64,000 nt of DNA from a virus: IMG/VR virus record IMGVR_UViG_3300047470_000395, positions 61,781 through 125,780 of that record. One strand, given 5' to 3'. Shown one piece after another: positions 18,985 through 61,884 of the stretch. Positions within the stretch are counted from its first letter, which is position 1. Every line of letters starts with the position of its first letter. The position numbers and the translations under genes are program-made. The notes beneath the pieces were generated by a model. It saw only the letters and a program-made list of their open reading frames with translations. It had not been told where the DNA came from and did no database searches.

Positions 18985-19004
18985 GAATAGTACACCCAGG
19001 GCAA
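18985..19004 (-). promoter_or_regulatory. Conserved promoter-like box TTGCCCTGGGTGTACTATTC
   Basis: One of 9 copies; upstream of the replication operon. Confidence 0.7.
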
Positions 19005-24860: not shown

Positions 24861-25000
24861 GTGCCGGCTGGGCGCCCGATGTGCGGGTCCGAGGACTCAG
24901 AACACCCAACCCGGTACAGGAGGATCATCTTCCGCTGTGGCGCTCAGGAAGCATAACCGGCCATTCTCCGGGCGTCACCGTACGACTGTGCGATGTTCGA

Positions 25001-25085
25001 TTGCCCTGGGCTTACTGTAATCTCGCCGTTGCAGGCGAGCGTCGCGGAGAGCACCGCGGCGAGCGCCAGACCTGAAGAGAAGGAG
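25001..25085 (+). promoter_or_regulatory. Promoter-box variant plus AGAGCA hairpin leader
   Basis: TTGCCCTGGGCTTACTGT, then CGTCGCGG-AGAGCA-CCGCGGCG, then SD AAGGAG. Confidence 0.65.
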
Positions 25086-25092
25086 CACCCCC

Positions 25093-25356
25093 GTGATGAC
25101 GTCGACGCCCGCGGTTGACCAGCCGTCCCACATCGACATGGCCCTGATGCGGTTCCCCCACCAGCAGTGGATCCCGGCGCCGGCCGCGGCCACGCACGTG
25201 GAGAACGTGGGGCTGCCTCGTGAAATCCTGCGGCTGGTGATCCGTACCGGCAAACGCCGTGGTGTCCTACGTATCAAGCGCGTGCCCGACCACGTCGGCT
25301 TCTACGTGATGAGGGTCTCCAAGATGCGCCCCGATGAGGTCACGGCCACGGCCTGA
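25093..25356 (+). CDS. Small basic hypothetical protein
   Basis: SD AAGGAG; preceded by both conserved motifs. Confidence 0.65.
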   Translation: MMTSTPAVDQPSHIDMALMRFPHQQWIPAPAAATHVENVGLPREILRLVIRTGKRRGVLRIKRVPDHVGFYVMRVSKMRPDEVTATA

Positions 25357-25365
25357 CTGATTCTT

Positions 25366-25475
25366 TGGATAACGGGCCTGGGCGCCCCTCCCTCCTTGCC
25401 AGCCGCGCCGTGAGGCGCGTGGGCTGCGCGCGCGAAAAGCACCTAGGAGGAGGGGGCGCCCAGGCCCGTTATCCA
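25366..25475. repeat. Long inverted repeat (31-nt arms) with inner hairpin
   Basis: TGGATAACGGGCCTGGGCGCCCC… / …GGGGCGCCCAGGCCCGTTATCCA. Confidence 0.85.
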
Positions 25476-25536
25476 GGCTCCCCCAGGCGGTAGTAGCTTG
25501 GCACCTCCGACCGACTTCGTGGGTAGGAGCCACACT

Positions 25537-26064
25537 GTGTCTGACCCGTTCGCCGTGCTCGCAGATCCGCTCTTTCAGCAGATCGACCAGGCCCGCGCAG
25601 CAGGTGACGAGTGCGCCGCGGCCGCGGCCCTCGAGGAGCTGCTCGCCCTGTACGTGCGGCTCGGCAGACGCGAGCTGGGCACGGTCGCCGAGCAGAACGA
25701 CTACATCGTCGCCCGGCACCTCGGCTTCGTGCCCGAGGCCCTGCAGCGTCTGGGCGTGACGCCTGCCGATCTCCCGGAGCCTCCCGGCCGCCGGCGTCCC
25801 CCTCCCCCGCCCTCGGCCCCGGCCGTCGTGGAAACGACCGAGATCGCCGAACGCTTCGCCCGCATCGGTGCCGCCGGCGACGGGCCGCCAGAGCGTTTCG
25901 GCGTCGCCTTCCGGCCGCAGGACAACGTCGTGCGGAAGGGGCGCCTGCAGCCCTTCGCCGTGGTCGACACGGACGAGGACGGCCTGCCCGTCGCCTGGTA
26001 CGACACCAGCGAGTGGGCCGAGGTCGTCGCGGACACCGCCAACCGGCTCCGCCTGCCCGACTGA
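25537..26064 (+). CDS. Hypothetical protein
   Basis: SD AGGAG, GTG 25537. Confidence 0.65.
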   Translation: MSDPFAVLADPLFQQIDQARAAGDECAAAAALEELLALYVRLGRRELGTVAEQNDYIVARHLGFVPEALQRLGVTPADLPEPPGRRRPPPPPSAPAVVETTEIAERFARIGAAGDGPPERFGVAFRPQDNVVRKGRLQPFAVVDTDEDGLPVAWYDTSEWAEVVADTANRLRLPD

Positions 26065-35933: not shown

Positions 35934-36369
35934 GGTGCGGCGTCCGGTACTTGTGCTCGAGGGTGCCCCGGCGGTGCTGGAGGACTTCGGCAACGACCGC
36001 GGGCCAGTCGACGGCTTGGTACCGCATCTCGGCGTCCGGGTTCTGCTCCCAGTCCGGCGCGTACCTGTCCTCGGTCAGGAGGGCCTCGGCCAGGCACTCG
36101 CCGCACACCACCCCGTCGGCCTCGCTCTGGTACTTGAGCAGCGTCTCCTTGTGGTCCGGGTGCAGCCGCATGTGCCGCCACGTCGCCTCGACGAGGAGAC
36201 GCCGCCAGTCGACGGCCACGGCGACGCGCTCGAGGATCGCGGCCATCGCGTCCGTGACGGCGTCGTACGCCTCGACGGGCATGGTGGCGATTTCGCCGAA
36301 CGAGTAGTGATGCTGCGGGCCGATCACGTCCTGGCGGAGCGACTCGACGACGGCCTTCCGGTTGGGCAT
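35923..36369 (-). CDS. Hypothetical protein
   Basis: ATG 36369; coding-like composition. Confidence 0.65.
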   Translation of the reverse strand: MPNRKAVVESLRQDVIGPQHHYSFGEIATMPVEAYDAVTDAMAAILERVAVAVDWRRLLVEATWRHMRLHPDHKETLLKYQSEADGVVCGECLAEALLTEDRYAPDWEQNPDAEMRYQAVDWPAVVAEVLQHRRGTLEHKYRTPHRGR

Positions 36370-36427
36370 GGGTGTTCCGTTCTCGGTTCGGGGGCGGTTC
36401 GGGGCGGGGAGCGGGGCTTGGGCGGGC

Positions 36428-37102
36428 CTACCGGCCGCGATGCGTCCCGCTGGCCAGGCGGTCGCGTAGCGCGGCACTGGCGGCCTGCTCGTCCTCGGCG
36501 CTGGGCGGCTGGATGTTGAGCGCGGCGAGAACGGCGCTCAGGATCGTGCCCGGGTCGGCGCCCGGTTCGCCGGCGGCGCCCTCGATCGCGTGCCAAGCAC
36601 GGTCGTGCTCGCCCGGGGTGAGCACTCGCGGCGGCTGCACGTCCCCGCCGGTGACCCGCTGTTGTGCGTACTGGGCGGCCGCGGTGAGCGCGTTACGCAG
36701 CTCGGGCAGCCGGCCCGTGAGGACGACGACGCGCACCGTGGCGGCCTCGTCGTCGTCGCTCGCCTGCCGCGTCACCTCGAACGTGGTCCAGGTGCTGCCC
36801 GGCGACACGGCCAGGGTGTCACCGGTGTGGTCGGCGACGCGGTACTCGCTCCGGGCGCGCAGCGGGGCATCGTAGGCGCGGGCCTGCTCGAGCGCGGCGT
36901 CGAGTTCCGCGGCCTGCTCGATCGTGAGCCACATACTGACGACGTCGCCGCCGAGGGCGAGGTTCTCGGCCTCGACCCACACGTACGGGCGCCGGGTCGC
37001 GTCGGTCGCGGTGCGCAGGATCAGCCGGTGGTTCTGTCCGTCGGTGTAGCAGTACGGGTACGTGGGCTGCTCGAGGACGGCGGCGGTCAGGTCGTTGGGC
37101 AT
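36428..37102 (-). CDS. Hypothetical protein
   Basis: SD AGGAG, ATG 37102. Confidence 0.7.
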   Translation of the reverse strand: MPNDLTAAVLEQPTYPYCYTDGQNHRLILRTATDATRRPYVWVEAENLALGGDVVSMWLTIEQAAELDAALEQARAYDAPLRARSEYRVADHTGDTLAVSPGSTWTTFEVTRQASDDDEAATVRVVVLTGRLPELRNALTAAAQYAQQRVTGGDVQPPRVLTPGEHDRAWHAIEGAAGEPGADPGTILSAVLAALNIQPPSAEDEQAASAALRDRLASGTHRGR

Positions 37103-37293
37103 GGTCGTCTCCTGATGACGGACGGGCGGACGGGTCAGGCGGGCTGAGGGAGGGACAGGCTGGGGAGCTCGAGGGGCCACGGCCGGCGGCGGGCGAACTC
37201 GAGGCGGTCCGGCTTCCAGCGGCCGGAGTTGGGCTTGCGGCGGCGGGGCGTGACGTTCCATCGCATGGCGGTGCCTTCCTGGGCGTGCGGTGG

Positions 37294-37584
37294 TCAAGCG
37301 GCCTGGGTGTCGTTCGGGTCGGGCACGATGCGGAGGTGACGCGGGCGGGACTGCTCGCGCTCGCGGGTCTTCTCGGCGGCCACCTGGGCGGACCGCTGGC
37401 GCTTGCGCTGCGAGGCGGCATCCGGCAGACGCCAACCGGCCTGGGCGTCGGTCAGGGCGGCACGGCGCGCGGCCTGCTGCTCCTGGGTCGTCATCAGCGA
37501 CTGTTGGGGCCGGGCCTCGCTGACGGAGTCGCCGAACCTGCCGGTCGGGATGGCCTCGGCCATGAGGCGCTCGTACGGCGTCAT
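37294..37584 (-). CDS. Hypothetical phage protein
   Basis: SD AGGAG; MTPYERLMAEAIPTG start. Confidence 0.65.
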   Translation of the reverse strand: MTPYERLMAEAIPTGRFGDSVSEARPQQSLMTTQEQQAARRAALTDAQAGWRLPDAASQRKRQRSAQVAAEKTREREQSRPRHLRIVPDPNDTQAA

Positions 37585-37656
37585 CTCGCATCTCCTGCCG
37601 GTTGTGCGGGTGGTGGAGCGGGGGCCGGGCGCGCGGCGGCGCCCGGCCGGGTGGGG

Positions 37657-38157
37657 CTACTTCTCCGGGGCGCGGCTGCACCTGCACTTGTGGCTGCAGC
37701 GCTCGCAGTCCTCGCAGATGTCGTGCGGGCAGCAGCCGCACGGCAGGCGGCGGCTGGGCGGCAACGTGCAGTGGTGCGCCGCGTCCTCCTCGGCGGCCGC
37801 GTCGACCTGGTCCAGGCGGGCCACGGCGGCGCGCACGGCGTCGGCGTCGGCGAGCGTCTCGGCCCGCACCGCGACCTCGTGGGCGTCGAGCATGGCCTTC
37901 GCCTGGTCGTGGTAGACCGGCCCGCCGGCCACCGGGGCGACGAGGTGGTTGAAGATCGGGCGGCGGGTCTCCCGGGACGGGCTCTGCGGCGCGGCGCCCA
38001 GCTCGTCGGCCACGTGGTCGAGCCACATGGCGGACGCGAGCACGCCCGTGTGCGTGTTCTCGTGCGCGGTGTCCGGCAACTGCAGCTCCCGCGAGCGCAG
38101 ATACCGGGCGGCCATGCGCAGAACGCGGGCGTCCTGCTGGGTAAAGACGGGGTCCAT
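37657..38157 (-). CDS. Hypothetical protein with Cys-rich C-terminus
   Basis: SD GGAAGGA; CGCCPHDICEDCERCSHKCRC. Confidence 0.65.
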   Translation of the reverse strand: MDPVFTQQDARVLRMAARYLRSRELQLPDTAHENTHTGVLASAMWLDHVADELGAAPQSPSRETRRPIFNHLVAPVAGGPVYHDQAKAMLDAHEVAVRAETLADADAVRAAVARLDQVDAAAEEDAAHHCTLPPSRRLPCGCCPHDICEDCERCSHKCRCSRAPEK

Positions 38158-38231
38158 CGGTGTCCTTCCTCGGACGTGAGTGGTGGAAGTGCCGGGCCGC
38201 CTGGGGGAACGTCGCGGCCCGGACGGCTGTG

Positions 38232-38684
38232 TCAGAACAGGCCGGACTGTCCGGCGGCCTCGAGCGCCAGGCGCTCCGTCTCGGAGGCCTGCTCGGCCTC
38301 CTGGCGGCGGATCTGCGCCACGAGCGGGGCCTGTCGCTGCGCCTCGGCCGTCTTGCGGGCCTGGAGCTCCGCGGACGTCGCCCAGCGCGTCATCACCTCG
38401 TGGTCGGCGAGCTCGGGCACGTCGCCCAGCGCGGTGCACTTGACGTGCGGGCTCTCGAGACGGCCGGTGACCTCGGCCAGGGTCCGGAGCCAGTTCGGGC
38501 CGTACGCGCCGACGATGACGACGAGCGTCCCGGCCGCGTCGAAGCCCTGCCGCAGGGAGAACCCGTCGGCCTCGTGCCGGTCGGGCCCGCCGGCCTTCTG
38601 CTCGTAGACGTCAAGGCCGAGGTCGACCAGTCCGCCCTCGACGAGATGGCGGCGGATCGTCGACGTGCGCGTGGCTCGAGACAT
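38232..38684 (-). CDS. Hypothetical protein ending QSGLF
   Basis: Preceded by AGAGCA hairpin and SD. Confidence 0.75.
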   Translation of the reverse strand: MSRATRTSTIRRHLVEGGLVDLGLDVYEQKAGGPDRHEADGFSLRQGFDAAGTLVVIVGAYGPNWLRTLAEVTGRLESPHVKCTALGDVPELADHEVMTRWATSAELQARKTAEAQRQAPLVAQIRRQEAEQASETERLALEAAGQSGLF

Positions 38685-38818
38685 GGGTGTCCTCGCTTCG
38701 TGGTCTGGGCCGGTGCTCTCCGGCCCGGGGCGGTGCGCCCTGCTCCTGCGCCGGACGGGCCGGTTCAGGGGCGGAGCGCACCGCCCGCCGTGGGGTGGCG
38801 GGCGGTGCTGCGGGCGGG

Positions 38819-39145
38819 CTACGCCAGGGCGACGGTGACCAGGACGTCCGCGAAGTACGTGTCGGGGTGCTCGCCGTCGTTGATCTCGAGGCCCTGGAAC
38901 TCCCAGTCCGCGGCGATGTCCGCGGCGAGCTCGGCGCGGCCCCTGCGCAGCGCGTGACCGTGGCTCACGGCCTCCACCGAGAACCAGTCGAGACCGGTGT
39001 CACGCAGCGACACCCACGCGGCGTTGGAGTTGTCGCCGACGCGGACGACCTCCGGCAGGATGCGGCGGATCTCGAACCCGGCCACCGGGCGGTCGGTGTA
39101 GACGACGGTGAAGCGGCGCAGCGTCTTGTGCAGGGTCAGGGACAT
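38819..39145 (-). CDS. Hypothetical protein
   Basis: Preceded by AGAGCA hairpin and SD, ATG 39145. Confidence 0.7.
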   Translation of the reverse strand: MSLTLHKTLRRFTVVYTDRPVAGFEIRRILPEVVRVGDNSNAAWVSLRDTGLDWFSVEAVSHGHALRRGRAELAADIAADWEFQGLEINDGEHPDTYFADVLVTVALA

Positions 39146-39234
39146 GGGGTTCCTCACTTCGTGGTGGGGGGCCGGTGCTCTCCGGCCCCGGGGGTGGGGC
39201 GCCCACGGCGGGCGCCCCTGGGGAGCTGCTGCGG

Positions 39235-40128
39235 TCAGGCGGCGAGCAGAAGCTGGGGGTCGTCCGGCAGGCTGTTGAGGAGCGCGTTCCGCCATGCGAT
39301 GGCGTACTTCGGGCAGTTGCCGCAGTGCACGTGCTTGCCGACACAGCCGGGCATCGGGGCCCGGTTCACCGCGTTGTAGGACCAGGCCATGGAGTCGGAG
39401 CTGTAGAGCTGGTGGGCGACGCGGCGGAGACCGGTCTTCTTGAAGCCGAAGCCGTGCAGGCGGATGCCCATGGACCAGACGGTTTCGATGATCCGGGCGG
39501 CCTCGTCGGTCTGCTGCAGGCGGCACACGGAGCCGATGCCGACGACGGGTTCGAGCGTGAGGTCGACGCCCACCTGGTCGTACAGGTCGATGCACCGCAG
39601 GTAGTCGTCGAGCGTGCGGCCCTGGATGACCGGCATCCACGGCAGCTCGGAGTCGAGCGTCATCAGGTTCAGGTACGACGCGACGGTCTTGATCTGGTGG
39701 TCGGCGATCGTGAGGCCGGTCTTCGCGAGGATCTCGTCCTCGCACATCCAGTCCTGAATGGCACACATGTCCATCAGGCCGATCTCGTCGTGGTACCGGC
39801 GCGCCGCCGCGGCGTACGTGTACGGCGAGACCGTCCAACGGCCGTGCTGCGACAGCTCCGTGAACCCGCGGGAGTCGAGCATCCACGGGGTGACGGCGCG
39901 CGGCAGGGTCTTACGGTCGGCCAGGCGCCCGTGGGAGACGCACAGCGGGATGCAGTCGTTGCCGAACTCTTCGCGGGCGAGCCAAGACGGCTGGTGCGTG
40001 CCCAGGTACGTCACGCGGTCGAAGTCGGCGAACCAACGGCGGTCGGCGTAGACGGGCGCGGGGCGCTTTGCCTGGGGCTGCGCATTCGCCGCCGGGGCGG
40101 GAATGTCGAAGAGTGCGGCATTGGCCAT
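39235..40128 (-). CDS. TGT/DpdA-like guanine transglycosylase-fold protein
   Basis: LDSRGF, QDWMCE, PVIQG, GIGSVC, LHGFG, SSDSMAW, plus a Cys/His cluster, in TGT motif order. Confidence 0.7.
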   Translation of the reverse strand: MANAALFDIPAPAANAQPQAKRPAPVYADRRWFADFDRVTYLGTHQPSWLAREEFGNDCIPLCVSHGRLADRKTLPRAVTPWMLDSRGFTELSQHGRWTVSPYTYAAAARRYHDEIGLMDMCAIQDWMCEDEILAKTGLTIADHQIKTVASYLNLMTLDSELPWMPVIQGRTLDDYLRCIDLYDQVGVDLTLEPVVGIGSVCRLQQTDEAARIIETVWSMGIRLHGFGFKKTGLRRVAHQLYSSDSMAWSYNAVNRAPMPGCVGKHVHCGNCPKYAIAWRNALLNSLPDDPQLLLAA

Positions 40129-40197
40129 GGTGTTCCTCGCTTCGTGGTCCGTTGGCGGTGCTCTCCGCCAACACGAGGAATAGTACACCCTGGGCAA
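40129..40197 (-). promoter_or_regulatory. Full leader module (promoter box, AGAGCA hairpin, ACCACGAA, SD)
   Basis: TTGCCCAGGGTGTACTATTC-CTCGT-GTTGGCGG AGAGCA CCGCCAAC-GGACCACGAAGCGAGGA. Confidence 0.8.
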
Positions 40198-40272
40198 CAC
40201 GTGGGGTAGGGGTACGGGGAAACGGAAGCGGGGGACCGCCCACCAGGACGACCCCCCGCGGTGCGGGCCGGC

Positions 40273-40860
40273 TCAGCCCTCCGGGGTCAGGAACACCGCG
40301 GCCCGGCCGTCGTCGTAGCGCAGCCGCAGCGTCCGCCCGTCCGTATGCCGGTCCAGCCGCATCCCGTTCTCGGCGAGCGCCTCGGCCACCCTGTGCGCCA
40401 CCTGGTCCCCGGGCACGGCCTGGCCCTCGACGACGTCGCCGACCGTGACCCGGTACGCCGTGCCCGGGTCGACGATCTGGGCCGCGATACCGGCGCGCTG
40501 GTGCTCCGAGTACACCGGCGTGCCCGCGGCTTCCCGTACCCACTCCCGCGGAGGCAGGGCGGGCAGGCCCAGGACGTCGGTCCAGCCGTCCAGCAGCCAC
40601 ACGGTGGTGCCCTCGACGGGTCCGCGCTTGCGGATGGCGGGCGTGCCGTCCATGCGGAGCCGGTCCCCCGTCACATGCACCGTGCCAGACGCCGGGTCGG
40701 ACGCCATGCGGGCCGCGGTGATCCGGAGCTGGTACGGGCGGGCGTTCGGGATCCCCGACAGGGCCTCCGTCACCGTGATGGTCCGGCCCACCAGAGCGCG
40801 CACCGCCTCCGGCTGCTCGTCGAGGTCCTCGGGCTGTTCAGGCATCGTCGTCGTCTCCAT
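40273..40860 (-). CDS. Hypothetical protein
   Basis: Coding-like ORF in the left arm. Confidence 0.65.
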   Translation of the reverse strand: METTTMPEQPEDLDEQPEAVRALVGRTITVTEALSGIPNARPYQLRITAARMASDPASGTVHVTGDRLRMDGTPAIRKRGPVEGTTVWLLDGWTDVLGLPALPPREWVREAAGTPVYSEHQRAGIAAQIVDPGTAYRVTVGDVVEGQAVPGDQVAHRVAEALAENGMRLDRHTDGRTLRLRYDDGRAAVFLTPEG

Positions 40861-40923
40861 CGGGAAGGGGTCGGGGGCCAGTCTGCCCGCGCCGGAGCGG
40901 GCCCGGCGCGGGCATGGGGTAGA

Positions 40924-42018
40924 TCAGGCGGCCAGGCCGTACAACGTGACCTGACGGACGCGGTACTTGGTCGTCGCGGCCTGGCCGATGTGCACGGCCA
41001 TCGCGGTCCCGGCCGGCGGCCGCGCGGCGGGTCCCTCGGCCTCCTCGAGCGCCTGGGCGCGTCGGATGATCTCCCGCATCGACAACCCCTTCTTGAAGTC
41101 GGCCCCGACGGTGACTTCGGTCCGGGCGTACGCCGCGGCGAGCTCCGGCACCCGACGGGCACCGTTCACCAAGTCGCTGTTGCACCCGAGGACACAGAAA
41201 ACGCAGCTCAGGCGCCGGTTTCCCCAGTCGTATGCCGGGTGGTACGGCAGACGCGACCGGGCTATCTCCTGCCACACCTTCCGGTCGCTCCACGCGTGGA
41301 TCGGGCGCCAGGTGACGACGTGCCGCTTCCCGTTGCTCGCCCCGCGGTTGATCTCCACCTCGGCGAGCTGCGCCCGCGCGGTGCTCTCCGCGGCCCGCTG
41401 GCCGATGCACTCCAGGATTCGCACGGGACGGCCCAGGTCGCCCAGCTCGGCGACCAGCCGCGTGTACAGGGTCCGGATCGGGCCCCGCTTCGCGTCCGGG
41501 GTGCACCAGCGTGCAGCACTCGACGGCCAGGCCGGGGCAACCTTCGCCGTGGCCGGGTCCTCGCCGCGCTCCCGCGCCTCCTCTTCGGCCTTCGCCTTCA
41601 GCTTGCCGTACCGGATCTCGACGCGGTCGAGGAGATCGGCGCCCTTCGCCTGGACCACCTCGAACCGGCGGACCCCGGCGAGCGCGGCCTGGAGCTCGGC
41701 GAGCTCGCGCGTCCCTTCCCACTCGACCCGGCCCAAGTCCGCGTGGACGACGACGACCTTGTGCAGCATCCCCAGGGCCTTCGCGCGCCGCACGACGTAC
41801 GACAGCATCGCCTGACTGTCCTTGCCGCCACTGCTCGAGATGACGACCCAGTCCGCGTCTCGGATCATCTCGTCCGGCACGGTCGTCGACGGCTCGAGGG
41901 GCACGGACGCGTGCACCGTCTTCCGCCGCTTCGGCTTGGGCTTCGCCGGCGCTGCGACCACGGGGGCGGCGTGCGGGCTCTGGATGGCGGGGAGGTCGAA
42001 CAGGGCGGCGGTCTGCAT
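40924..42018 (-). CDS. PAPS-reductase-family (PP-loop) protein
   Basis: SSSGGKDSQA, HADLGRVEW, RWCT…KRGP, GQRAAES…R, RPIHAWS, RLSCVFC. Confidence 0.85.
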   Translation of the reverse strand: MQTAALFDLPAIQSPHAAPVVAAPAKPKPKRRKTVHASVPLEPSTTVPDEMIRDADWVVISSSGGKDSQAMLSYVVRRAKALGMLHKVVVVHADLGRVEWEGTRELAELQAALAGVRRFEVVQAKGADLLDRVEIRYGKLKAKAEEEARERGEDPATAKVAPAWPSSAARWCTPDAKRGPIRTLYTRLVAELGDLGRPVRILECIGQRAAESTARAQLAEVEINRGASNGKRHVVTWRPIHAWSDRKVWQEIARSRLPYHPAYDWGNRRLSCVFCVLGCNSDLVNGARRVPELAAAYARTEVTVGADFKKGLSMREIIRRAQALEEAEGPAARPPAGTAMAVHIGQAATTKYRVRQVTLYGLAA

Positions 42019-42108
42019 GGCGGGCGTCCTCGAGGGCGTGGAGCGGGCGGAGCGGGGCGGGGAGCGGGAGCGGGGGGCGCAGCACGGGCCGCGCCCCCTG
42101 GGGGGCCG

Positions 42109-42555
42109 TCAGCGGTACCAGTGGCCGAACTGGTTGCGGCGGGTCACGTACATCTCGGCGTGCTCCTCGTCGCGCCACTCGCACGGGGGCAGCGCGTAGC
42201 GGACGACCGCGCCGAACCGGCAGGTGGATACGACGGTCGCCGTGTCGCCGTCGTGAAGGGTGATCACGTCGCCGGTCTCCAGCCCCAGGAAGTCCGGGGT
42301 CGGCGCGCTCGCTTCGTTCCTCCACCAGGCGCCCCACGCCTTCGGCGCGTGCGGGGACCTCGAGAGCGGCGCGAACTGGTCGCCGGGCCGGTAGTCGATC
42401 CACTCGATGGTGTCCGCCTTCGGGCTGTACAGGTGCTCACGGTCGTACGCGGCCGGGACGCTCGAGACGGGCAGCTCTCCCAGGGCGAGCGGCCTACGGG
42501 CCTTCGCGGGGGCCGGGGCGGCGGGGACGACGTCGAACAGGGCGAGGGTCTGCAT
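42109..42555 (-). CDS. Hypothetical protein starting MQTLALFD
   Basis: SD GGAGG, ATG 42555. Confidence 0.7.
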   Translation of the reverse strand: MQTLALFDVVPAAPAPAKARRPLALGELPVSSVPAAYDREHLYSPKADTIEWIDYRPGDQFAPLSRSPHAPKAWGAWWRNEASAPTPDFLGLETGDVITLHDGDTATVVSTCRFGAVVRYALPPCEWRDEEHAEMYVTRRNQFGHWYR

Positions 42556-42645
42556 GGGGGTCCTCCAGGACGTGAGGCGGGCGGAGAAGGGGGCTGAGGG
42601 GCCGGGGCGCACCGTGCGGGCTGCGCCCCGCCCCGGGGGGAGCTG

Positions 42646-43527
42646 CTAGCCGTTCCAGGCCGCGCGGATGTCGGCGACGAACTTGGCGGCCGCGGCGGTC
42701 GCGCTCGCCGGGTCGGCGTTCGGGTCGCACCGGTGGATGACGGCCTCGGCCGCGCCGTTGTTGAACCGGATCTGCCAGGTACCGGCCCAGTGCTCCATGG
42801 GCGCGTCGACGAACACCCAGTCCTCATGGGCCTCGTAGATGAAGGCGACGAGCTGGGGCGTCCCAACGCCGGGGAAGTCGCTGCCGGTCACGGGGATGAC
42901 CAGCCACGAGTTACCGGCGTCCTCGTCGGCGTGCGCGGTGATGCCGTGCTCGGCGAGCGCCGCGGTCATCCGCTCGCGGGCCGTGGGCGCCGGGGGCGTG
43001 AGGATGAGCCGCGCCAGACGCTCCCGGCCGGTGCGGTCGCACTCCCGGAACTCCTCCACGGTCCAGCCGGCCACCCGGAACAGGTCGGCGTACTCGTGGA
43101 TGGTCCGCTCCTCCTCGGCGGCGTCCACCGTGGCGGGCTGGTGCTCGCGGCGGAACCCCAGCACCACCTCACCGGTCTCGCGGCGCGGGTCCAGGTCGGC
43201 CCCGGCGCTGATGCACTGGTCCCGGTCGTTGAACGCGGCGAGCGGCTGCCCGTCGTGGGTAAGCAGGCGGACGGCCGCCTTCACCTGGGGCACGTCGGTG
43301 CTCTCGGGCAGGCAGCCGAAGGAGTACGGCGCGGCCTCGCCCGCCAGACGCATGAAGACCAGTCCACCCGCCCCGGGAGTTGCCGCGCGCACCTTCGGGT
43401 CCTCGTCGGCGGCCTTGAGCGCCCGCTCGTACGTGTCGGCCTTCACCTGGCTGATCAGGTTGCCCTCGCGGTCCTTGATGGCCCACCAGCAGACGGACTC
43501 GACGGGGGTGGTGGCGGTGTTCGGCAT
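42646..43527 (-). CDS. Hypothetical protein
   Basis: SD GAGGAG. Confidence 0.7.
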   Translation of the reverse strand: MPNTATTPVESVCWWAIKDREGNLISQVKADTYERALKAADEDPKVRAATPGAGGLVFMRLAGEAAPYSFGCLPESTDVPQVKAAVRLLTHDGQPLAAFNDRDQCISAGADLDPRRETGEVVLGFRREHQPATVDAAEEERTIHEYADLFRVAGWTVEEFRECDRTGRERLARLILTPPAPTARERMTAALAEHGITAHADEDAGNSWLVIPVTGSDFPGVGTPQLVAFIYEAHEDWVFVDAPMEHWAGTWQIRFNNGAAEAVIHRCDPNADPASATAAAAKFVADIRAAWNG

Positions 43528-43620
43528 GGCGGAGTTCTCCTCGGTGAGGCGTGGCGAGCTGGGGGAGGGTGCCGGGGCGCGGCGCGTACGGTCGCGCCCC
43601 GGCGGTAGGGACCGGACCGG

Positions 43621-44037
43621 TCAGACGACGTCGGTGGCGGTGAAGTGGTCGGCCAGGCCGCGACCGGCGCGCTCGGCCTCCAGGCGCACGGCGGCGTCGT
43701 ACACGGCCTCGATCACCGCGCGGGTGTCGTGGTCGACGACGTACCACTTGCCGCCACGGCCGCCCGTCCAGAAGTCGAGCGCGTACCGGGTCGCCAGGGT
43801 GGCGGGCTCCAGGTACTCGACGACGCGGATGGTCTGGCCCCACGCGCCGTCGGCGGCACGGATGCCGGACTCGCGCAGGACCTTGCCGCCCGCGATGTTG
43901 AAGGCGTACGCCTCGTGCTGCTCGCGGGGGACGGTGGTCGTGTAGATCCGGTGGTGCATGACGGCGCGGGGCTCGCCGTACTGCTCGGTCAGCTCCCACC
44001 AGGGCTTCATGGCGGCCTCTACGGGGGCAACGCTCAT
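43621..44037 (-). CDS. Hypothetical protein
   Basis: Follows a full leader module. Confidence 0.7.
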   Translation of the reverse strand: MSVAPVEAAMKPWWELTEQYGEPRAVMHHRIYTTTVPREQHEAYAFNIAGGKVLRESGIRAADGAWGQTIRVVEYLEPATLATRYALDFWTGGRGGKWYVVDHDTRAVIEAVYDAAVRLEAERAGRGLADHFTATDVV

Positions 44038-44107
44038 AGGGGTGTTCCTCCTTCGTGGTCTGGCGGGTGCTCTCCCGCCAACACAGAGAATAGTACACCC
44101 TGGGCAA
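44038..44107 (-). promoter_or_regulatory. Full leader module
   Basis: Box 44088-44107; hairpin TGGCGGG AGAGCA CCCGCCA; ACCACGAAGGAGGA. Confidence 0.8.
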
Positions 44108-44212
44108 TGATGGGTAGGGGTTCCCCAGGAAAACCCACGGGTGATGGCCCCGGGATTCCCTCCGGCTGTGCATTCGGGGGAGTCCCGGGGCTCTACCTGC
44201 CCGGGGGAGCTG

Positions 44213-45184
44213 CTACGCGGCCGGGGCGTACCGCCGGCGCTCGGCGTCCACCGACGGGATGACGACGCGAGTGATCCCGTCGGCGAACCGCTCCGCCATC
44301 GGCCGCGGCTTCGGCCACGGGGCACGGCGGGGCTTCACCGGCATGGGCGGGGGCACCACCAGCGGCGGCCGGGCCACCGACACGGGGAACAAGCCCTCCT
44401 GTCCGTCCTGCTCGGCCCGCACGGCGTCCACCTCGTCGGCCTCCCGCAGCACCGCGGCGTGAGCCTGCTCGAACAGCTCCACCCGCTCCGCCTCCAGGCG
44501 CTCCGCCTCCATCCGGGCGGCCTCCGCACGGGCCAGGCGCTCCGCCTCGGCGACGACCGCGGGCACCATCCGCGCCCGGAGGGCCGTCACCGCGCTGTCG
44601 TCGGCCTGCTCGAGGTCCACACCGCCCACGGCGGCCCACACCTCCTCGGCGACGGCCCCGTGCTGCTCCCACAGCGGCCGGGAGCTGCTCCGCGCCTCCA
44701 CGGGCCGCGTACGGGCCCCCAGACGCTGCGCCAGGGCGTGCAGGACGTCCGCGCGGAACTCCCGGACCCGCACGCGCATCGTCGACGCGTCCTCGTACTC
44801 CAGGAACGCCTCGGCGGCCGCGGAGCGCTTCCACACGCCGAACACACGGACCGCCCGGGTCGCCAGGGCCTCCACCTCGTCCAGGACCCGCTCGAGGGCC
44901 ACCAGGTACCCGGCGACCGCCCGCGCGTCGCCCTGCACCGTCAGCCGCCGGTCGTCCAGGCCGCCGTACCGCTCATCGGTCCCGCACATCTCCTTGTAGT
45001 ACGACCACCGGGGGTTCAGCTTGAAGGGGGTCGCCGCCTCCACCCCGTGGACGTCGGCCAGGGCCCACGCCACGTCGTGGTGCTGCTTCGCCCGACGCTT
45101 CGACGCCGCGGGGAACGCCAGGTCGACGGTGAACCGGCCCGGGGCCGACTCGTACGGGCGGGGGAACTCCACATGCGCGCTCAT
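44213..45184 (-). CDS. Hypothetical protein
   Basis: Preceded by AGAGCA hairpin; ATG 45184. Confidence 0.7.
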   Translation of the reverse strand: MSAHVEFPRPYESAPGRFTVDLAFPAASKRRAKQHHDVAWALADVHGVEAATPFKLNPRWSYYKEMCGTDERYGGLDDRRLTVQGDARAVAGYLVALERVLDEVEALATRAVRVFGVWKRSAAAEAFLEYEDASTMRVRVREFRADVLHALAQRLGARTRPVEARSSSRPLWEQHGAVAEEVWAAVGGVDLEQADDSAVTALRARMVPAVVAEAERLARAEAARMEAERLEAERVELFEQAHAAVLREADEVDAVRAEQDGQEGLFPVSVARPPLVVPPPMPVKPRRAPWPKPRPMAERFADGITRVVIPSVDAERRRYAPAA

Positions 45185-45269
45185 GCGCTCTCTCTTTCGT
45201 GGTGCGGCGGTGCTCTCCGCCGCGGGGGGAACCGGCCCGCGAACACGGACCGGAGACAAGGGGGACGAC

Positions 45270-45623
45270 TCAGCCGCGGCGCAGCGCACGGGCCACACGG
45301 ACCAGCCAGCACGCGCGCCGGCTGCCGCGGTACTCGTACGCCCGGACCATCGCGGCGACCGTCCGCGGGTCCGGCGACTGGTGCCACTCCACGGTGAGGA
45401 CCAGACGTTCCCGCAGCTCCTCATTCGGCCGCTCCAGGGCGAGCGTCGCCCCGGCCGGGGTGATCTGCCAGAGCATCCACACGCGGTCTGTGTCGTACGC
45501 GCGCTGCCGGGTGTCCGTCGACCGCGCCGGGCGCAGACCCAGCAGACCGGCGACCGCGTCCGTGAACGCCACGAACGACTTCGGGCCGGGCAGATGCGAC
45601 GGAAGCCAAGGGGGCAGAGGCAT
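45270..45623 (-). CDS. Hypothetical protein
   Basis: SD GGAAGG. Confidence 0.5.
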   Translation of the reverse strand: MPLPPWLPSHLPGPKSFVAFTDAVAGLLGLRPARSTDTRQRAYDTDRVWMLWQITPAGATLALERPNEELRERLVLTVEWHQSPDPRTVAAMVRAYEYRGSRRACWLVRVARALRRG

Positions 45624-45817
45624 GACGGGCTAGAACCTTCCTCGGAGCGCCCCGCAGCGCCCCGACGCACCGGACGACCGGGCAGGGGCTGACAGGGCTT
45701 GGAGAGCGGGTTTCTGGACTTTCTGGACCGTCCACACGCGCGCGGGCGTGTAAGGCGGCTCGAGGGGCTCGAGGGGTGCCGCCCGACCCGTTCGGCCGGG
45801 CGGCACCGGTGGCCGAC

Positions 45818-47671
45818 TCAGGCGGACGCGTACGTCACGGGGACGTCGACGCGGAACATGGCGGCGAGCACCTTGCGCGCGTTGGCGGCGGCGTCCTCGC
45901 GGCCGTCCCGCTTGCGGAAGTTGACGACGATCGGCGGGTGCGCCGGGCAGTGCCCGAGTGCCGTGTCGACTCCGGCGGTGATCCGGGCGGTGACGTTCCA
46001 TCCGCTGCGGGCGTCGCTGCGGCAGACGACGCGGACGGTGGGCGTGCCGGTCTCGATGGCCTGCAGCTCCTCCGGGGCGGCGTCGGCGGCGTTGTAGGCC
46101 TGGGCGGCGGTGCGGATGGTGTCGGCGGTGGCGGGCATGTCCGTGCCGTGGATCCGGTGGGCGTGCGGGGCGATGGCCAGGATCACCGCGCGGGCCTGCT
46201 CGACGGCGGCGCGCGCCTGGTCGTGGGCGGCGTTGCGGGCGGGGAGGGTGCTGGCGGTGCGCAGCGACTCCCACGCGTCCTCGACGGCGCCGCGCGCCTC
46301 GACGATCGCCAGGTGCTGCTCGCCGGGCGCGTGCTTGCCCAGGGTGAGCAGGTGGCGGCCGAGGTCCTCGAGGTCGCGGGGCGCGGAGACGGACACGGTG
46401 GCCTCGTAGGCGGCCAGCGCGGCGTACAGGGTCCCGGCGGCGGGGGCGGGGTCCTCGGCGGCGACGGTGCCGAACACGGCGTCCAGGGAGGCGCGGGTAA
46501 CCATCAGGTGCATGTCCGGCGGGAAGGTGCTGCCGGTCGTGCTCTCGTCGTGGCTGCGGAACGTCCAGGTGGGACGGACCCAGGGCGCGCCGGGGCCGAC
46601 GAACGCCGTGACGGCGGAGACGGTGCGGGTCTCGCCCATGTGCGCGTGGATCACGTCCATGCCGGGGCGGATCATGTCGGCGCGGACGGGGAGCGCCGAA
46701 CCGTCGGCGATGGCCTGGAAGGTCTCGGCGTAGTACGCGGCCAGCTCCGCGTCGATGTCGCCGGTCAGTTCGGCGTCCGTGGGGCGCTCCGTCGGGGTGG
46801 GGAACGTGTCGCCGGGGGTGGCGGGGCGCAGGTACACGGTCCGGCCGTCGCGGTAGACGATGTGGGCGGTCGACTTGCACGCGGACATCCGCTTGACGGT
46901 GCGCTTCACCAGCGGCTGCATCATCGCGGCGTTGATCTCGTCCAGGGCCTGGCGGGTCGGGATGATCTCGGTGGGGCCGTCGTTGACGATCCGGACGTGC
47001 TGGCGCTCCTCGGCGGGCGCGGCGGCGGGGGCCGGCTGCGGGACGTACCGGCGGTTCTCCACGACGATGGCGCGGTCGGCGGGGTCCTGGTGGAACGGCT
47101 GCCGCTTGAAGCGCAGGTTCGACACGATCTTGCGGACGTGGGCGGCGGGGATGCCGTCGTGCTTGCGCTCCTCGCCGACGTACACCGCGTGCGGCGCGTC
47201 GACGACGTCGTCGGTGGTGGGCAGCGCCTCCAGCTTCGCGGGGGGCTTGCTCCACAGGCGGATGGACACCGGCTCGACACCGCGCAGGCGCATCGGGGAC
47301 AGGCGGTTGGACAGGCGCACGGAGATCGCGTCGGTGAGCTGCTTATCCCAGCCGCGCGGGTCGCGGTCGCCGCCCTCGACGATCTCGTCACGCAGGGCGT
47401 GCACCTCGTCGGTGGTCATGTGGTGGAGCTGCTCGCGGATGGCCCAGTACCGCTCATCCGGCGTGAAGATGACGCGGACGCGCTCCGACTCGGCGTCCCG
47501 GCGGATGATGCGGCGGACGGTCTCCTTGTTCGCCTTGCCCTGCTCCTTGTCGGCGTCGCGGCTCATCACGGCGTCCACCAGGTCGTGGGTGACGACGCGG
47601 CCGTTGTGCAGCGTGGCAGCGATGAAGACCTGAAGCGCCATTCCTTCGGCGCGGTCGGTAGCAGTCAGCAT
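45818..47671 (-). CDS. Large mosaic hypothetical protein, first gene of the left arm
   Basis: ATG 47671 after a hairpin variant and GGAGG. Confidence 0.75.
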   Translation of the reverse strand: MLTATDRAEGMALQVFIAATLHNGRVVTHDLVDAVMSRDADKEQGKANKETVRRIIRRDAESERVRVIFTPDERYWAIREQLHHMTTDEVHALRDEIVEGGDRDPRGWDKQLTDAISVRLSNRLSPMRLRGVEPVSIRLWSKPPAKLEALPTTDDVVDAPHAVYVGEERKHDGIPAAHVRKIVSNLRFKRQPFHQDPADRAIVVENRRYVPQPAPAAAPAEERQHVRIVNDGPTEIIPTRQALDEINAAMMQPLVKRTVKRMSACKSTAHIVYRDGRTVYLRPATPGDTFPTPTERPTDAELTGDIDAELAAYYAETFQAIADGSALPVRADMIRPGMDVIHAHMGETRTVSAVTAFVGPGAPWVRPTWTFRSHDESTTGSTFPPDMHLMVTRASLDAVFGTVAAEDPAPAAGTLYAALAAYEATVSVSAPRDLEDLGRHLLTLGKHAPGEQHLAIVEARGAVEDAWESLRTASTLPARNAAHDQARAAVEQARAVILAIAPHAHRIHGTDMPATADTIRTAAQAYNAADAAPEELQAIETGTPTVRVVCRSDARSGWNVTARITAGVDTALGHCPAHPPIVVNFRKRDGREDAAANARKVLAAMFRVDVPVTYASA

Positions 47672-47946
47672 CTGGGGTTCCTCCGGTTCGTGGTCTGGCC
47701 GGGGATGCTCGCCCCGGCCCCGCCTTAGTGGCGTCCGCTGACCGTACCGCCCTCCCCTCGAATACGCAACCCAGGGCAATCGGAGAGTGTGAAGAGCTCG
47801 AGAGTTCGTGGCGCTCACCTGGGTATCTCGAGGAATCTCAACGCGGGGGGTTGCGTCAAATTGCCTTGGGTGTACTGTTCTTCTCAGCGGTTCACACCGC
47901 AGCCCCGGAGAGCACCGGGGCGAGACCACGAAACGAGGAACACCCG
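47672..47946. promoter_or_regulatory. Divergent control region with back-to-back leader modules
   Basis: Boxes at 47760-47779(-) and 47861-47880(+); hairpins at 47697-47719(-) and 47902-47921(+). Confidence 0.8.
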
Positions 47947-48282
47947 ATGATCACTAAGGCCACCGACACCCCCCGCGCCACCGTCACCCTGGAGAAGGAC
48001 CCCACCGCCATCGTCTGGTTCCTGGCCGTCGTCACCGACATGGCCACCCCCGCCGCCCGGGTCCACGAACTGATCGTCACCTTCGAGGCCTCGTACGACT
48101 CCCAGGTGGAGGCGGCGCACCGCCTGGCCGAGACGATCGACGGCGCCACCGTGGAGATCCTGTTCGCCGGTGACCGGTCCGAGGCGTACGGCGTGGCCCG
48201 CACCGGCCAGGACTTCGACGGGATGCTCGACCTGTGGCTCGCCCAGCAGCCCCCGGCCGTGTGCATCGAACAGATCGTCTGA
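47947..48282 (+). CDS. Hypothetical acidic protein
   Basis: Follows a leader module. Confidence 0.75.
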   Translation: MITKATDTPRATVTLEKDPTAIVWFLAVVTDMATPAARVHELIVTFEASYDSQVEAAHRLAETIDGATVEILFAGDRSEAYGVARTGQDFDGMLDLWLAQQPPAVCIEQIV

Positions 48283-50275: not shown

Positions 50276-50346
50276 TTGCCCAGGGTGTACTATTCAGGGG
50301 TTGGCGGAGAGCACCGCCGACAGACCACGAACTGAGGGAGCACCCC
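50276..50346 (+). promoter_or_regulatory. Full leader module
   Basis: Box 50276-50295; GTTGGCGG AGAGCA CCGCCGAC; ACCACGAA; GAGGGAG. Confidence 0.8.
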
Positions 50347-54751: not shown

Positions 54752-54826
54752 TTGCCCAGGGTGTACTATTCGGCGTGTTGGTGGAGAGCGCCGCCGACGA
54801 GGACCACGAACGAAGAGGAACACCAG
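54752..54826 (+). promoter_or_regulatory. Full leader module
   Basis: Box 54752-54771; GTTGGTGG AGAGCG CCGCCGAC; ACCACGAA; GAGGA. Confidence 0.8.
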
Positions 54827-56146
54827 ATGCGGACCCTGCCCCCCGCGGTCGCCACCGCCGTTCACATCGCCACCCTCGCCCGCAAGAACGGCCTGCCGAT
54901 CCCGCCGAAGGTGTACGCCGTCCTGGAGGCCGCCGCGAACCCGTGGCCCGCCGAGTGGCTCCTCGCCCCGCTCCCCGGCGACCCGATCCGCGTGGTCGAG
55001 CTGTTCGCCGGTCCCGGCGGCTGGTCCGAGGGCCTCGCCGTCGTCCTCGGCGTCAAGGTCGACGCCGTCGGCGTGGACCTCTCCAAGGACGCCTGCGCCA
55101 CCGCCCGCGCCGCCGGACACCGCCGCATCTGCGCCGACATCACCACCCTGGACCCCGAGCACTACGCCCTGCGCCACACCCGCGGCCTGATCGTCTCCCC
55201 GCCGTGCCCCTCGTTCTCCCCGGCCGGGAAGCACTCCGGGCTGGAGGAGGCGAACATCTTCACCCTGTGCCGCGTCCTCGCCCAGACCTCCGAGGCAGGC
55301 GGCTTCCTCCCCGGCAACGAGCTGGACGACTGGTGCGAGGGCTGCGACACCTGCGACGAGCTGGGCTACCACGACGGGTTCGCCCCGCGCTCCGGCGTCA
55401 CCTGGGACGAGCTGCGCTCTCAGCTCGCCCCGCTCACCGACCCCCGCATCGGCCTCATGGCGGAGCTGCTGTTCTGGGCATTCGGCATGCAGGCCGCGGG
55501 CGCGCCCCTCCAGTTCGTCGCGATGGAGCAGTCCAGCCGCCTGCCGCAGCAGATCCTCGACGACATCCGCCTGGAGCTGCGCGGCGGCCAGGAAGAGGGA
55601 GAGTGGTACTGGAGCACCGAGGGCATCCTCGAAGCCTCCGAGTTCGGTCTCGCCTCCCGCCGCGAGCGGGTGTTCTTCCTGGCCTCCCGCCGCCTGGCCT
55701 ACCTGCCCACGCCCGCCGAGGACGTCCACCGGACCACGATGGCGCAGGCCCTCGGCTGGAAGGAGGGCGAGCGGATCAACACCCGCGGCGTCCGCCCGAT
55801 CGACCCGGCCACCGGCCGCGCCAAGGGCGGGAACGAGTTCTCCGCCGACAAGCCGTCCAACTGCCTCACCGGCAAGGCCCGCACCTGGAAGCGCGTCAGC
55901 GACGGTCTGCGCCTCACCCCGAACGAGGCCGGTCTCCTCGTCGGCTTCCGCCGCTCGTACCCCGGTGAGGGTTCCCGCACGAGCGTGTTCCAGCAGCTCG
56001 CCGACGTCGTCCCCCCGGTGATGGCGGCGCGGGTGCTCGCCCAGTTCTTCGACGTCGACGGGGAGGCCCTGGCCGCTGACTACCTGTGCCAGCTCTACCG
56101 GCTGCACGAGTACCTCGACGCCGAGGACTACGACACGGTGGCCTGA
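54827..56146 (+). CDS. Orphan DNA (cytosine-5) methyltransferase
   Basis: ELFAGPGG (motif I), SPPCPSFS (IV), MEQ (VI), RRERVF (VIII), QQLADVVPP (X); CxxCxxC insertion. Confidence 0.9.
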   Translation: MRTLPPAVATAVHIATLARKNGLPIPPKVYAVLEAAANPWPAEWLLAPLPGDPIRVVELFAGPGGWSEGLAVVLGVKVDAVGVDLSKDACATARAAGHRRICADITTLDPEHYALRHTRGLIVSPPCPSFSPAGKHSGLEEANIFTLCRVLAQTSEAGGFLPGNELDDWCEGCDTCDELGYHDGFAPRSGVTWDELRSQLAPLTDPRIGLMAELLFWAFGMQAAGAPLQFVAMEQSSRLPQQILDDIRLELRGGQEEGEWYWSTEGILEASEFGLASRRERVFFLASRRLAYLPTPAEDVHRTTMAQALGWKEGERINTRGVRPIDPATGRAKGGNEFSADKPSNCLTGKARTWKRVSDGLRLTPNEAGLLVGFRRSYPGEGSRTSVFQQLADVVPPVMAARVLAQFFDVDGEALAADYLCQLYRLHEYLDAEDYDTVA

Positions 56147-61864: not shown

Positions 61865-61884
61865 TTTACCTGGGTGTACTATTC
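61865..61884 (+). promoter_or_regulatory. Promoter-box variant
   Basis: TTTACCTGGGTGTACTATTC. Confidence 0.7.

Follow-up and report, generated by a model that had tools for sequence, protein, structure and literature searches.

We report here on two enzymes encoded one gene apart on the minus strand of a 64,000-nt viral sequence (the window), namely a DpdA-like protein of the tRNA-guanine transglycosylase (TGT) fold and a PP-loop enzyme of the PAPS-reductase fold. The window is the second half (positions 61781-125780) of the 125,780-bp IMG/VR record IMGVR_UViG_3300047470_000395, which has a CheckV completeness of 97%. Both enzymes start with a short motif resembling the bacterial β-clamp-binding motif, and terminal motifs of this type recur among their homologs. 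In the reading put forward here, for and against which the evidence seems evenly balanced, they are separately mobile, clamp-tethered enzymes which would modify DNA after replication. The locus is part of a leftward accessory-gene array and contributes two separately transcribed enzymes, which would act on DNA.

The DpdA-like protein starts with MANAALFDIP, the PP-loop enzyme with MQTAALFDLP, and orf148, a small protein encoded next to the latter, with MQTLALFDVV; each start is followed by a Pro/Ala/Lys-rich stretch. No further coding-like open reading frame (ORF) of the window has such a start. In the AlphaFold2 (AF2) models of both enzymes, the N-termini are of low confidence and the linkers are disordered, with residues 1-8 of the DpdA-like protein having a predicted local distance difference test (pLDDT) value below 50. 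A strict C-terminal motif occurs in only one of the 59 coding-like ORFs of the window, the 150-amino-acid protein encoded at 38232-38684 (...GQSGLF).

Among the 106 PP-loop homologs that have at least 15 residues ahead of the PP-loop, 68 have a match to Qxx(x)[LM]F or to QLxL[FL] in their first 30 amino acids, while the remaining 31,000 amino acids of these proteins contain none. The forms include QTATLF (18), QLALF (9), QTAALF (7), QLTLF (7) and QQLSLF (5) as well as QLDLF and QLSLF, and three of the 19 non-actinobacterial viral homologs begin with QLDLF, QTGLF or QNPLF. An LF motif is likewise found in the first 30 amino acids of 31 of the 45 DpdA homologs with an N-terminal extension, which are Streptomyces homologs. 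Many DpdAs without this extension carry the motif at the C-terminus, such as ...RQLALF, ...GEQLELFA, ...RQLDLFAAAAA and ...SQLDLFGKAAA, and DpdAs of K-cluster mycobacteriophages end with ...ELTLFDVA or ...ALFTVDELAAA. The strict pattern Qx(1-3)[LM]F is present in the last 22 amino acids of 14 of 69 distinct viral DpdAs, compared with 16 of the 4028 other ORFs in these loci; using a relaxed pattern, the C-terminal tails of 37 of the 69 DpdAs and 108 of the 4028 other ORFs are matched. A terminal QL(S/D)LF-type motif is thereby present in the families as a whole, the window copies being the variants QTAALF, QTLALF and ANAALF.

In the sections of PMC9690074 available to us, the bacterial β-clamp-binding consensus is given as QL(S/D)LF, usually in a terminal position, and the corresponding sections of PMC6159521 document actinobacterial NucS as a clamp client acting through its C-terminus. 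In two Streptomyces genomes, NucS ends with ...KLRLF. A search for DnaN domain 3 found none in the phage, which accordingly has no clamp of its own. Since an element of the fold would keep one position, docking behaviour is indicated by a motif which can be N- or C-terminal within one family and which three unrelated proteins of one array have in common. Combined with the consensus, the NucS precedent and the lack of a phage clamp, this leads us to propose that the motif docks on host DnaN, which we consider rather probable on the basis of the sequences. A complex prediction for Streptomyces coelicolor DnaN (Swiss-Prot) and residues 1-40 of the DpdA-like protein gave a best value of 0.31 against a mark of 0.34, in a run without controls, and thus counts neither for nor against binding. 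Full-text literature searches, which had subscription journals outside their coverage, gave no earlier report linking DpdA or phage DNA modification to a clamp motif among the papers listed. Within the limits of these searches, the terminal clamp-like motif across the singleton-DpdA and phage PAPS-reductase-like clades appears to be new.

Table 1. Coordinates of the genes, protein motifs and leader elements in the window.
Feature	Position	Strand	Evidence or remark
150-amino-acid protein	38232-38684	-	no known family; tail ...GQSGLF; leader hairpin and ribosome-binding part
DpdA-like DNA transglycosylase gene, 297 amino acids	39235-40128	-	PF23859, phrog_1279, Foldseek, identity to Orion gp20
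H266-x2-C269-x2-C272, putative Zn site	39313-39333	-	invariant in A1
D245-S246, second Asp motif (SSDSMAWS)	39391-39396	-	invariant in A1
DSRGF (D85-F89), first catalytic-Asp motif	39862-39876	-	D85 and S86 invariant in 78 sequences
DpdA N-terminal motif ANAALFDIP (residues 2-10)	40099-40125	-	β-clamp-binding-motif-like; then a Pro/Ala/Lys linker of ~30 amino acids
DpdA leader module	40129-40197	-	promoter-like box 40178-40197, hairpin 40152-40171, ribosome-binding site
orf195	40273-40860	-	intervening gene between the DpdA and PP-loop genes; variable among relatives
PP-loop/PAPS-reductase-fold enzyme, 364 amino acids	40924-42018	-	PF01507 E 4.5e-14; phrog_424 7.8e-30
C272-x2-C275	41194-41205	-	with C172 (41503-41505), Cys triad invariant in A2
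PP-loop S63-G-G-K-D-S68	41815-41832	-	S63, G65, D67 and S68 invariant in 58 sequences
PP-loop enzyme N-terminal motif QTAALFDLP (residues 2-10)	41989-42015	-	β-clamp-binding-motif-like
orf148	42109-42555	-	small protein, N-terminal MQTLALFDVV; usual companion of the PP-loop gene
Methyltransferase leader module	54752-54826	+	box, hairpin, ribosome-binding site
C5 methyltransferase, orphan	54827-56146	+	PF00145 E 1.9e-17; PADLOC MTase_II 2.1e-21
Box copies	18985-19004(-), 40178-40197(-), 44088-44107(-), 47861-47880(+), 50276-50295(+), 54752-54771(+), 61865-61884(+)	both	repeat search

The folds and the family placement of both enzymes can be regarded as practically certain. The ORF of the DpdA-like protein extends over 39235-40200, and the ATG at 40128, downstream of a ribosome-binding site, is likely the true start. 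The protein matches PF23859 'DpdA' with an E-value of 8.7e-80 (268.2 bits against a gathering cut-off of 27) and phrog_1279 with 4.7e-82. Searches of the PDB with its sequence or with a clade profile returned no chain, 7ui4 included, the profile being followed up to E 10. Therefore, a fold search was needed to place the protein. Its AF2 model (pLDDT 91) gave 115 Foldseek matches in the PDB at E≤0.001, with the TIM-barrel TGT fold. The top match was the Salmonella DNA preQ0 insertase DpdA (7ui4, E 2.1e-6, query TM-score (TMq) 0.50), followed by ArcTGT and then by bacterial and eukaryotic TGTs, and the leading matches had TMq values of 0.50-0.60. An earlier note, made from the DNA sequence before this analysis, had suspected a TGT-like enzyme and named the absence of a TGT fold as the finding that would speak against it. 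The match of the model to 7ui4 and the TGTs bears out this fold. The likeness of the protein to the characterised insertases is structural only.

In an alignment of 78 DpdA homologs (A1), C202 is invariant in addition to the two Asp motifs and the His/Cys site. A tentative mapping of these residues to the TGT catalytic sites, with D245 as the putative nucleophile, is based on the order of the TGT motifs. The earlier note had stressed DSRGF in place of DSGGF. This motif is indeed present; nevertheless, it is not a feature of the family, because G occupies position 87 in 74 of the 78 aligned sequences and R does so in three. Among the examined loci, DSRGF is restricted to the record of the window itself (L002) and to L006, L007, L089 and L114, while Gilgamesh and others have DSGGF, and the exchange is kept in five records whose DpdA is 92-100% identical to that of the window. 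DSRGF was therefore rejected as the mark of a new subfamily, being limited to the sublineage of the window.

As the same note had described, the TGT-ordered motifs lie one gene away from a PP-loop protein with SGGKDS, orf195 being the gene between them, and all the elements of that first observation are present at the positions it gave. In PADLOC, the PP-loop enzyme has partial matches to BrxP (2.3e-14), DndC (2.6e-8) and SspD (1.3e-5). The best Foldseek matches of its AF2 model (pLDDT 90.8) are APS/PAPS reductases (2goy, 6vpu and 1sur, E ~3e-7), followed by the Fe-S tRNA thiolase TtuA. The PP-loop and a triad of cysteines are invariant in an alignment of 58 homologs (A2), and the CxxC of this triad aligns with the cluster-binding CxxC of the APS reductase 2goy, so that the enzyme probably binds an iron-sulfur (Fe-S) cluster. 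The catalytic motif of CysH is a C-terminal Cys motif of the ECGLH type. This motif is not present in the PP-loop enzyme, and its scores against the CysH models are 37.6 bits for NF002537 (cut-off 154) and 26.4 bits for TIGR02057 (cut-off 254). A role as a QueC analogue was also considered and rejected, as the record contains no match to PF06508 and the QueC structure 2pg3 appears only at Foldseek rank 45. In our reading, the protein is a PP-loop ATP-pyrophosphatase that acts as an ATP-dependent and probably Fe-S-dependent transferase similar to DndC and TtuA, and is neither a sulfate-assimilation enzyme nor a QueC. Its closest resemblance is to DndC, BrxP and TtuA, all of them sulfur-transferases that depend on ATP, and its kinship with DndC, TtuA and APS reductase is supported.

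A comparison with known phages places the DpdA-like protein, by sequence, in the 'singleton DpdA' clade of actinophages and not among the characterised DpdAs. It is 47% identical to gp20 of Mycobacterium phage Orion (E 3e-83), and a tblastn search with it returned 408 phage records, 399 of which are mycobacteriophages at ~47% identity. Rosebush gp2, a DpdA located in a complete preQ0 operon, shows no detectable sequence similarity to it (BLASTP E 0.11), and the PF23859 model scores 466 bits for PG1 gp20 without matching Rosebush gp2. Pfam PF23859 'DpdA' is thus built around the functionally untested singleton clade and not around the characterised insertases, a point that appears to be new within the limits of the full-text searches. 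In the portions of Hutinet et al. 2019 available to us (PMC6884629), 76 phages with DpdA only are described, which cluster by host and whose DpdA function is left open. The follow-up of 2023 (PMC10516641) defines bDpdA and DpdA1-4 and, in the available sections, does not resolve the singletons. In PG1 and Orion the gene is moron-like, being reversed within the structural operon, and in MacnCheese it is located beside the integrase.

The earlier note had listed no preQ0, dpdBC or dnd genes in the window. For QueC (PF06508), PTPS/QueD, GTP cyclohydrolase I (FolE), DUF328/DpdC (PF03883) and DndD this absence holds and extends to the whole 125,780-bp record, in which no cysteine desulfurase (Aminotran_5) was found either. 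The DndE search was silent, as was its control. No ParB/DpdB-like partner turned up in the arrays, in which DpdB-like ParB ATPases were not searched for specifically. The only radical-SAM protein of the phage, which lies outside the window, has no QueE model among its 25 best NCBIfam matches. This 715-amino-acid protein is encoded in the first half of the record at 23665-25812 (L207 190-2337); it has a MoaA/PqqE/SPASM-like radical-SAM domain at residues 430-600 behind a long N-terminal region of no known family and is not QueE-like. On the host side, the QueC model has no more than weak, partial matches to PP-loop proteins in five Streptomyces genomes with related elements. Of 301 Streptomyces genomes, 32 have QueC (E≤1e-15) and 32 have a member of the DpdA family; both occur in six genomes, and never close together. 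Since the phage has no preQ0 genes and QueC accompanies DpdA in only six of 32 genomes, preQ0 from either source does not seem to be the usual substrate, and phage- or host-made preQ0 is unlikely to be the incoming base of the DpdA-like enzyme.

In elements of Streptomyces and Nonomuraea, the linkage of the two genes is far above chance. Of the 301 Streptomyces genomes, 21 contain the PP-loop homolog (E≤1e-20), including one (G135) that is flagged as unpublished. DpdA lies within 3.5 kb of it in six genomes (G072, G171, G196, G131, G112 and G075), and a seventh (G152) contains remnants of both genes. A Nonomuraea locus (L107) also has the pair, with 38% and 37% identity to the proteins of the window. 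Six divergent loci have no gene in common apart from DpdA and the PP-loop gene; the order of these two flips, and their spacing varies from 0.2 to 2.6 kb. The pairwise identities of the two proteins are correlated (r = 0.87 for 11 paired loci, i.e., 55 non-independent pairs). Among the proteins encoded near the pair in other elements are C5 methyltransferases and ParB_N proteins, which marks these loci as DNA-modification neighbourhoods. At the same time, only four of the 80 viral contigs that encode a DpdA of this clade have a PP-loop homolog within 10 kb, and DpdA is found in only three of 78 viral contigs with a PP-loop homolog. Even within the Gilgamesh-like family, four members have only DpdA (L007, L094, L103 and L114) and two have only the PP-loop gene (L012 and L015), and the two genes have separate terminator-like hairpins and start regions. 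The rare co-occurrence, the single-gene members and the separate starts show that the pair is not obligate. The linkage is genuine and of long standing, though facultative, and, within the limits of the full-text searches, its recurrence in actinomycete elements appears to be new. The pair itself is not, since Gilgamesh gp114 and gp116 are already annotated, and the occurrence of DpdA in phages that lack preQ0 genes is a puzzle already known from PMC6884629. Therefore, the suggestion of a minimal and possibly new system fails both on novelty of the gene pair and in the obligate sense, while the linkage that a co-occurrence analysis was to look for is found in Streptomyces and Nonomuraea.

In the mechanism that we propose, the array would be transcribed from its repeated leaders, either after entry or during plasmid-like maintenance. 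The DpdA-like and PP-loop enzymes would then be recruited by clamps left on newly replicated DNA, and orf148 would carry the same docking motif for host DnaN. With both Asp motifs and the His/Cys site intact, the DpdA-like enzyme would swap guanine for a base of unspecified identity, and the PP-loop enzyme would adenylate, and probably thiolate, a position in the DNA. The DNA of the element would be modified, as unavoidably would that of the host. Together with the orphan C5 methyltransferase, this could render the DNA less visible to restriction in the next host. That DNA is the substrate of both enzymes we judge probable on balance; for an anti-restriction purpose the arguments on either side seem to us of equal weight. 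A more specific version, which we consider distinctly improbable as it stands, holds that these clamp clients write a non-preQ0, possibly sulfur-containing guanine modification on nascent DNA, with base exchange by DpdA and ATP-dependent thiolation by the PP-loop/Fe-S enzyme. If true, it would account for the absence of a known 7-deazaguanine with Orion-type DpdAs, and many phage 'cysH' auxiliary metabolic genes would be DNA-modification enzymes.

Several observations weigh against clamp-tethered modification of this kind. The G87R exchange adjoins the catalytic Asp and could impair the copy in the window. In the accessible part of PMC6884629, liquid chromatography-tandem mass spectrometry (LC-MS/MS) detected no 7-deazaguanine in Orion virion DNA; Orion being the only clade member tested there, writer activity is unproven for the singleton clade. 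The motif of the window's DpdA lacks the consensus Q, the DpdAs of B1-cluster mycobacteriophages (PG1 and Orion) have no terminal motif, and about half of the viral DpdAs are not matched even with the relaxed pattern. No clamp-like motif is seen at either end of the methyltransferase, although this protein of the same array is certainly a DNA enzyme. The NCBIfam scores of the PP-loop enzyme all fall far under the cut-offs, with 28.1 bits against 290.4 for the DndC model TIGR03183, and its sulfur-transfer role is deduced from the fold and the conserved cysteines only.

Docking of the LF motif on something other than the clamp (a phage partner, packaging or proteolysis), or its origin as a by-product of cassette-like duplication of gene starts, appears doubtful. 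A 35-nt DNA repeat (family D4) does span the first codons of the three genes with 74-83% identity, the Q is missing in the DpdA of the window, and the ...AA ends of many of these proteins hint at other terminal signals. However, at the protein level the motif varies among canonical clamp forms (QLSLF, QLDLF, QLALF and others), shifts to the C-terminus in other lineages and is present in non-actinobacterial homologs, none of which is explained by duplication at the DNA level. The obligate two-enzyme pathway favoured by the earlier note, in which the PP-loop enzyme makes or matures the base for DpdA or modifies it once it is in the DNA, similar to QueC/TGT, DpdA/DpdC or Cap9/Cap10, we think unlikely. 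The pair stays adjacent despite order flips, identities down to 28-38% and turnover of all other neighbours; the co-divergence of the two proteins and their common N-terminal motif also point in this direction, as does the TGT-like Cap10 (9ntn_B), which has a QueC-like partner and appears at rank 39 of the structural matches of the DpdA-like protein. Against it stand the loci without the partner (76 of 80 for viral DpdA and 75 of 78 for the viral PP-loop gene), the single-gene members of the Gilgamesh-like family and the separate hairpins and starts. Furthermore, 23 phage records match the PP-loop protein, and none of the 399 mycobacteriophage records with DpdA is among them.

The singleton clade might instead erase or exchange, swapping damaged, adducted or foreign-modified guanine for plain guanine, either as counter-defence against guanine-targeting host enzymes or as a prophage defence against deazaguanine-modified phages. 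The Orion result in the available part of PMC6884629, the lack of preQ0 genes in the phage and the scarcity of QueC in DpdA-positive Streptomyces genomes, never near DpdA, would all fit this idea, as would the moron-like gene positions in PG1, Orion and MacnCheese and the conserved catalytic residues. No adduct-making partner has been identified, however, and TGT-family enzymes are known as base exchangers which use modified incoming bases; we regard this explanation as improbable. Least credible, to the point of being very nearly dismissed, is the literal sense of the database labels, by which the first protein would be a queuine tRNA-ribosyltransferase with tRNA as its substrate and the second a PAPS reductase encoded by an auxiliary metabolic gene of sulfate assimilation. 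Apart from the names, it can draw on the APS/PAPS reductases as the best structural matches of the PP-loop enzyme. It is at odds with the lack of QueC in most hosts searched, the intact PP-loop without an ECGLH-type C-terminal motif, the terminal clamp-like motifs on both proteins and the additional matches to the DndC, BrxP and SspD profiles.

In comparison with the closest known systems, the window DpdA shares PF23859 and the stand-alone, moron-like gene without phage preQ0 genes with Orion gp20 and PG1 gp20 (NCBI 'DUF7221 / DpdA family'). In contrast to these, it has an N-terminal extension of ~40 amino acids with the LF motif, DSRGF in place of DSGGF and a nearby PP-loop enzyme, which was seen in no mycobacteriophage record. 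With bDpdA (7ui4), phage DpdA1/DpdA2 and Rosebush gp2, it has the TGT fold in common, but neither detectable sequence similarity nor a context of DpdC or FolE/QueC/QueD/QueE. Gilgamesh gp114-gp117 form an orthologous syntenic block, with 86% amino acid identity for both enzymes and the same trio of N-terminal motifs, although the Gilgamesh DpdA has DSGGF and the annotation gives generic names only. The PP-loop enzyme shares SGGKDS, the PAPS-reductase fold and conserved cysteines with DndC, SspD and BrxP (DNA phosphorothioation and type-4 BREX) and with the tRNA thiolase TtuA. Unlike DndC, SspD and BrxP, it scores far below the respective cut-offs, has no DndD or cysteine desulfurase in the phage and carries a terminal clamp-like motif instead of partners. 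NucS/EndoMS and Dnmt1-PCNA offer a parallel, as they combine a short terminal motif with action on newly replicated DNA in the available sections of PMC6159521 and PMC9690074, whereas the binding of the phage enzymes is predicted from sequence.

Stand-alone DpdA is common, as the 408 phage records and the 32 of 301 Streptomyces genomes illustrate, and the clade has been without a function since the negative Orion result of 2019. If true, clamp docking would provide the first mechanistic handle on singleton DpdA, with replicating DNA as its substrate, and would explain how these enzymes can do without an ATPase of the DpdB type. The presence of this motif on phage 'PAPS reductases' calls into question their routine annotation as auxiliary genes of sulfur metabolism and points to DNA thiolation.

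The element itself is a temperate phage-plasmid of Streptomyces, similar to phage Gilgamesh (129 kb, host S. lividans). Region 36000-48000 of the window, which has a G+C content of ~70%, is 83.4% identical at the nucleotide level to Gilgamesh across 63% of the region length, and Streptomyces plasmids of 125-140 kb also match it in patches. The Gilgamesh annotation contains ParA/ParB, two tyrosine integrases and an FtsK-like translocase, with no DNA polymerase, clamp or preQ0 gene annotated, which leads to this assignment. Streptomyces contigs of 125-135 kb are the source of many homologs of both enzymes, so that this type of element is widespread. The minus-strand array of short units spans from ~47.9 kb down to 35 kb of the window.

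The orphan C5 methyltransferase seen in the earlier note is confirmed on the plus strand by PF00145 and PADLOC; its score against TIGR00675 is 51.4 bits, under the cut-off of 100.65. The observation that the TGT-like and methyltransferase genes each have a full leader module also proved real. A 20-nt box, TTGCCCAGGGTGTACTATTC, occurs seven times in the window with at most three mismatches, compared with 0 copies expected from 100 shuffles. One copy precedes the DpdA ATG by 50 nt and another precedes the methyltransferase ATG by 56 nt, and both genes share a leader of ~70 nt in which the box is followed by a near-identical hairpin and a ribosome-binding site. At the starts of the PP-loop gene and orf148, only a ribosome-binding site and a terminator-like hairpin are present. 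Selected genes of two arrays, which diverge near 47.9 kb, are headed by the box together with a conserved hairpin of the GTTGGCGGAGAGCACCGCCAAC type and a ribosome-binding site. This arrangement may represent a promoter specific to the phage, combined with an operator or an RNA hairpin; a sigma factor (gp92) is encoded by Gilgamesh itself. The 24 sequencing datasets listed for the sequence are all of DNA, with no RNA dataset among them.

Regarding the remaining genes, neither orf195 nor orf148 has a match in Pfam, PHROG, NCBIfam or PADLOC. In L006, L090, L091 and others, orf195 is not located between the pair. The fold of orf148 is unknown, and its matches in the ESM Atlas are all below 0.9 and to unnamed clusters. 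A Pfam scan of 14 other ORFs of the window found no family apart from a weak helix-turn-helix, and the protein encoded at 38232-38684 has no clear counterpart in Gilgamesh at that position. In other elements, ParB_N proteins of 520-670 amino acids are encoded near the pair (L104 17513-19528, L110 3437-4999 and L111 1940-3538). They recall DpdB and ParB-dependent phage DNA-modifying enzymes, and none was found in the window. A protein of 405-545 amino acids without a Pfam family adjoins DpdA in three loci (L108 11666-13303, L109 10734-12293 and L111 9599-10816; 39-77% mutual identity) and may be an alternative partner. The ParB_N, C5-methyltransferase and 405-545-amino-acid neighbours from these other elements have no homolog in the window by tblastn at E≤1e-3.

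Finally, some features of protein tails were recorded. The homolog of Gilgamesh gp122 (44213-45238, minus strand) contains an internal ...DGQEGLFPV... about 60 residues before its C-terminus and a Pro-rich tail after it; this stretch may be another LF-type motif. The DpdA-like protein ends with ...QLLLAA (39235-39243) and the PP-loop enzyme with ...YGLAA (40924-40932), and seven of the 59 coding-like ORFs of the window end with AA. Many viral relatives of DpdA (L128-L204) end with ...AA, ...VA or ...AS directly after the clamp-like motif. The AA ends could be an ssrA-like degradation signal or simply an effect of composition.

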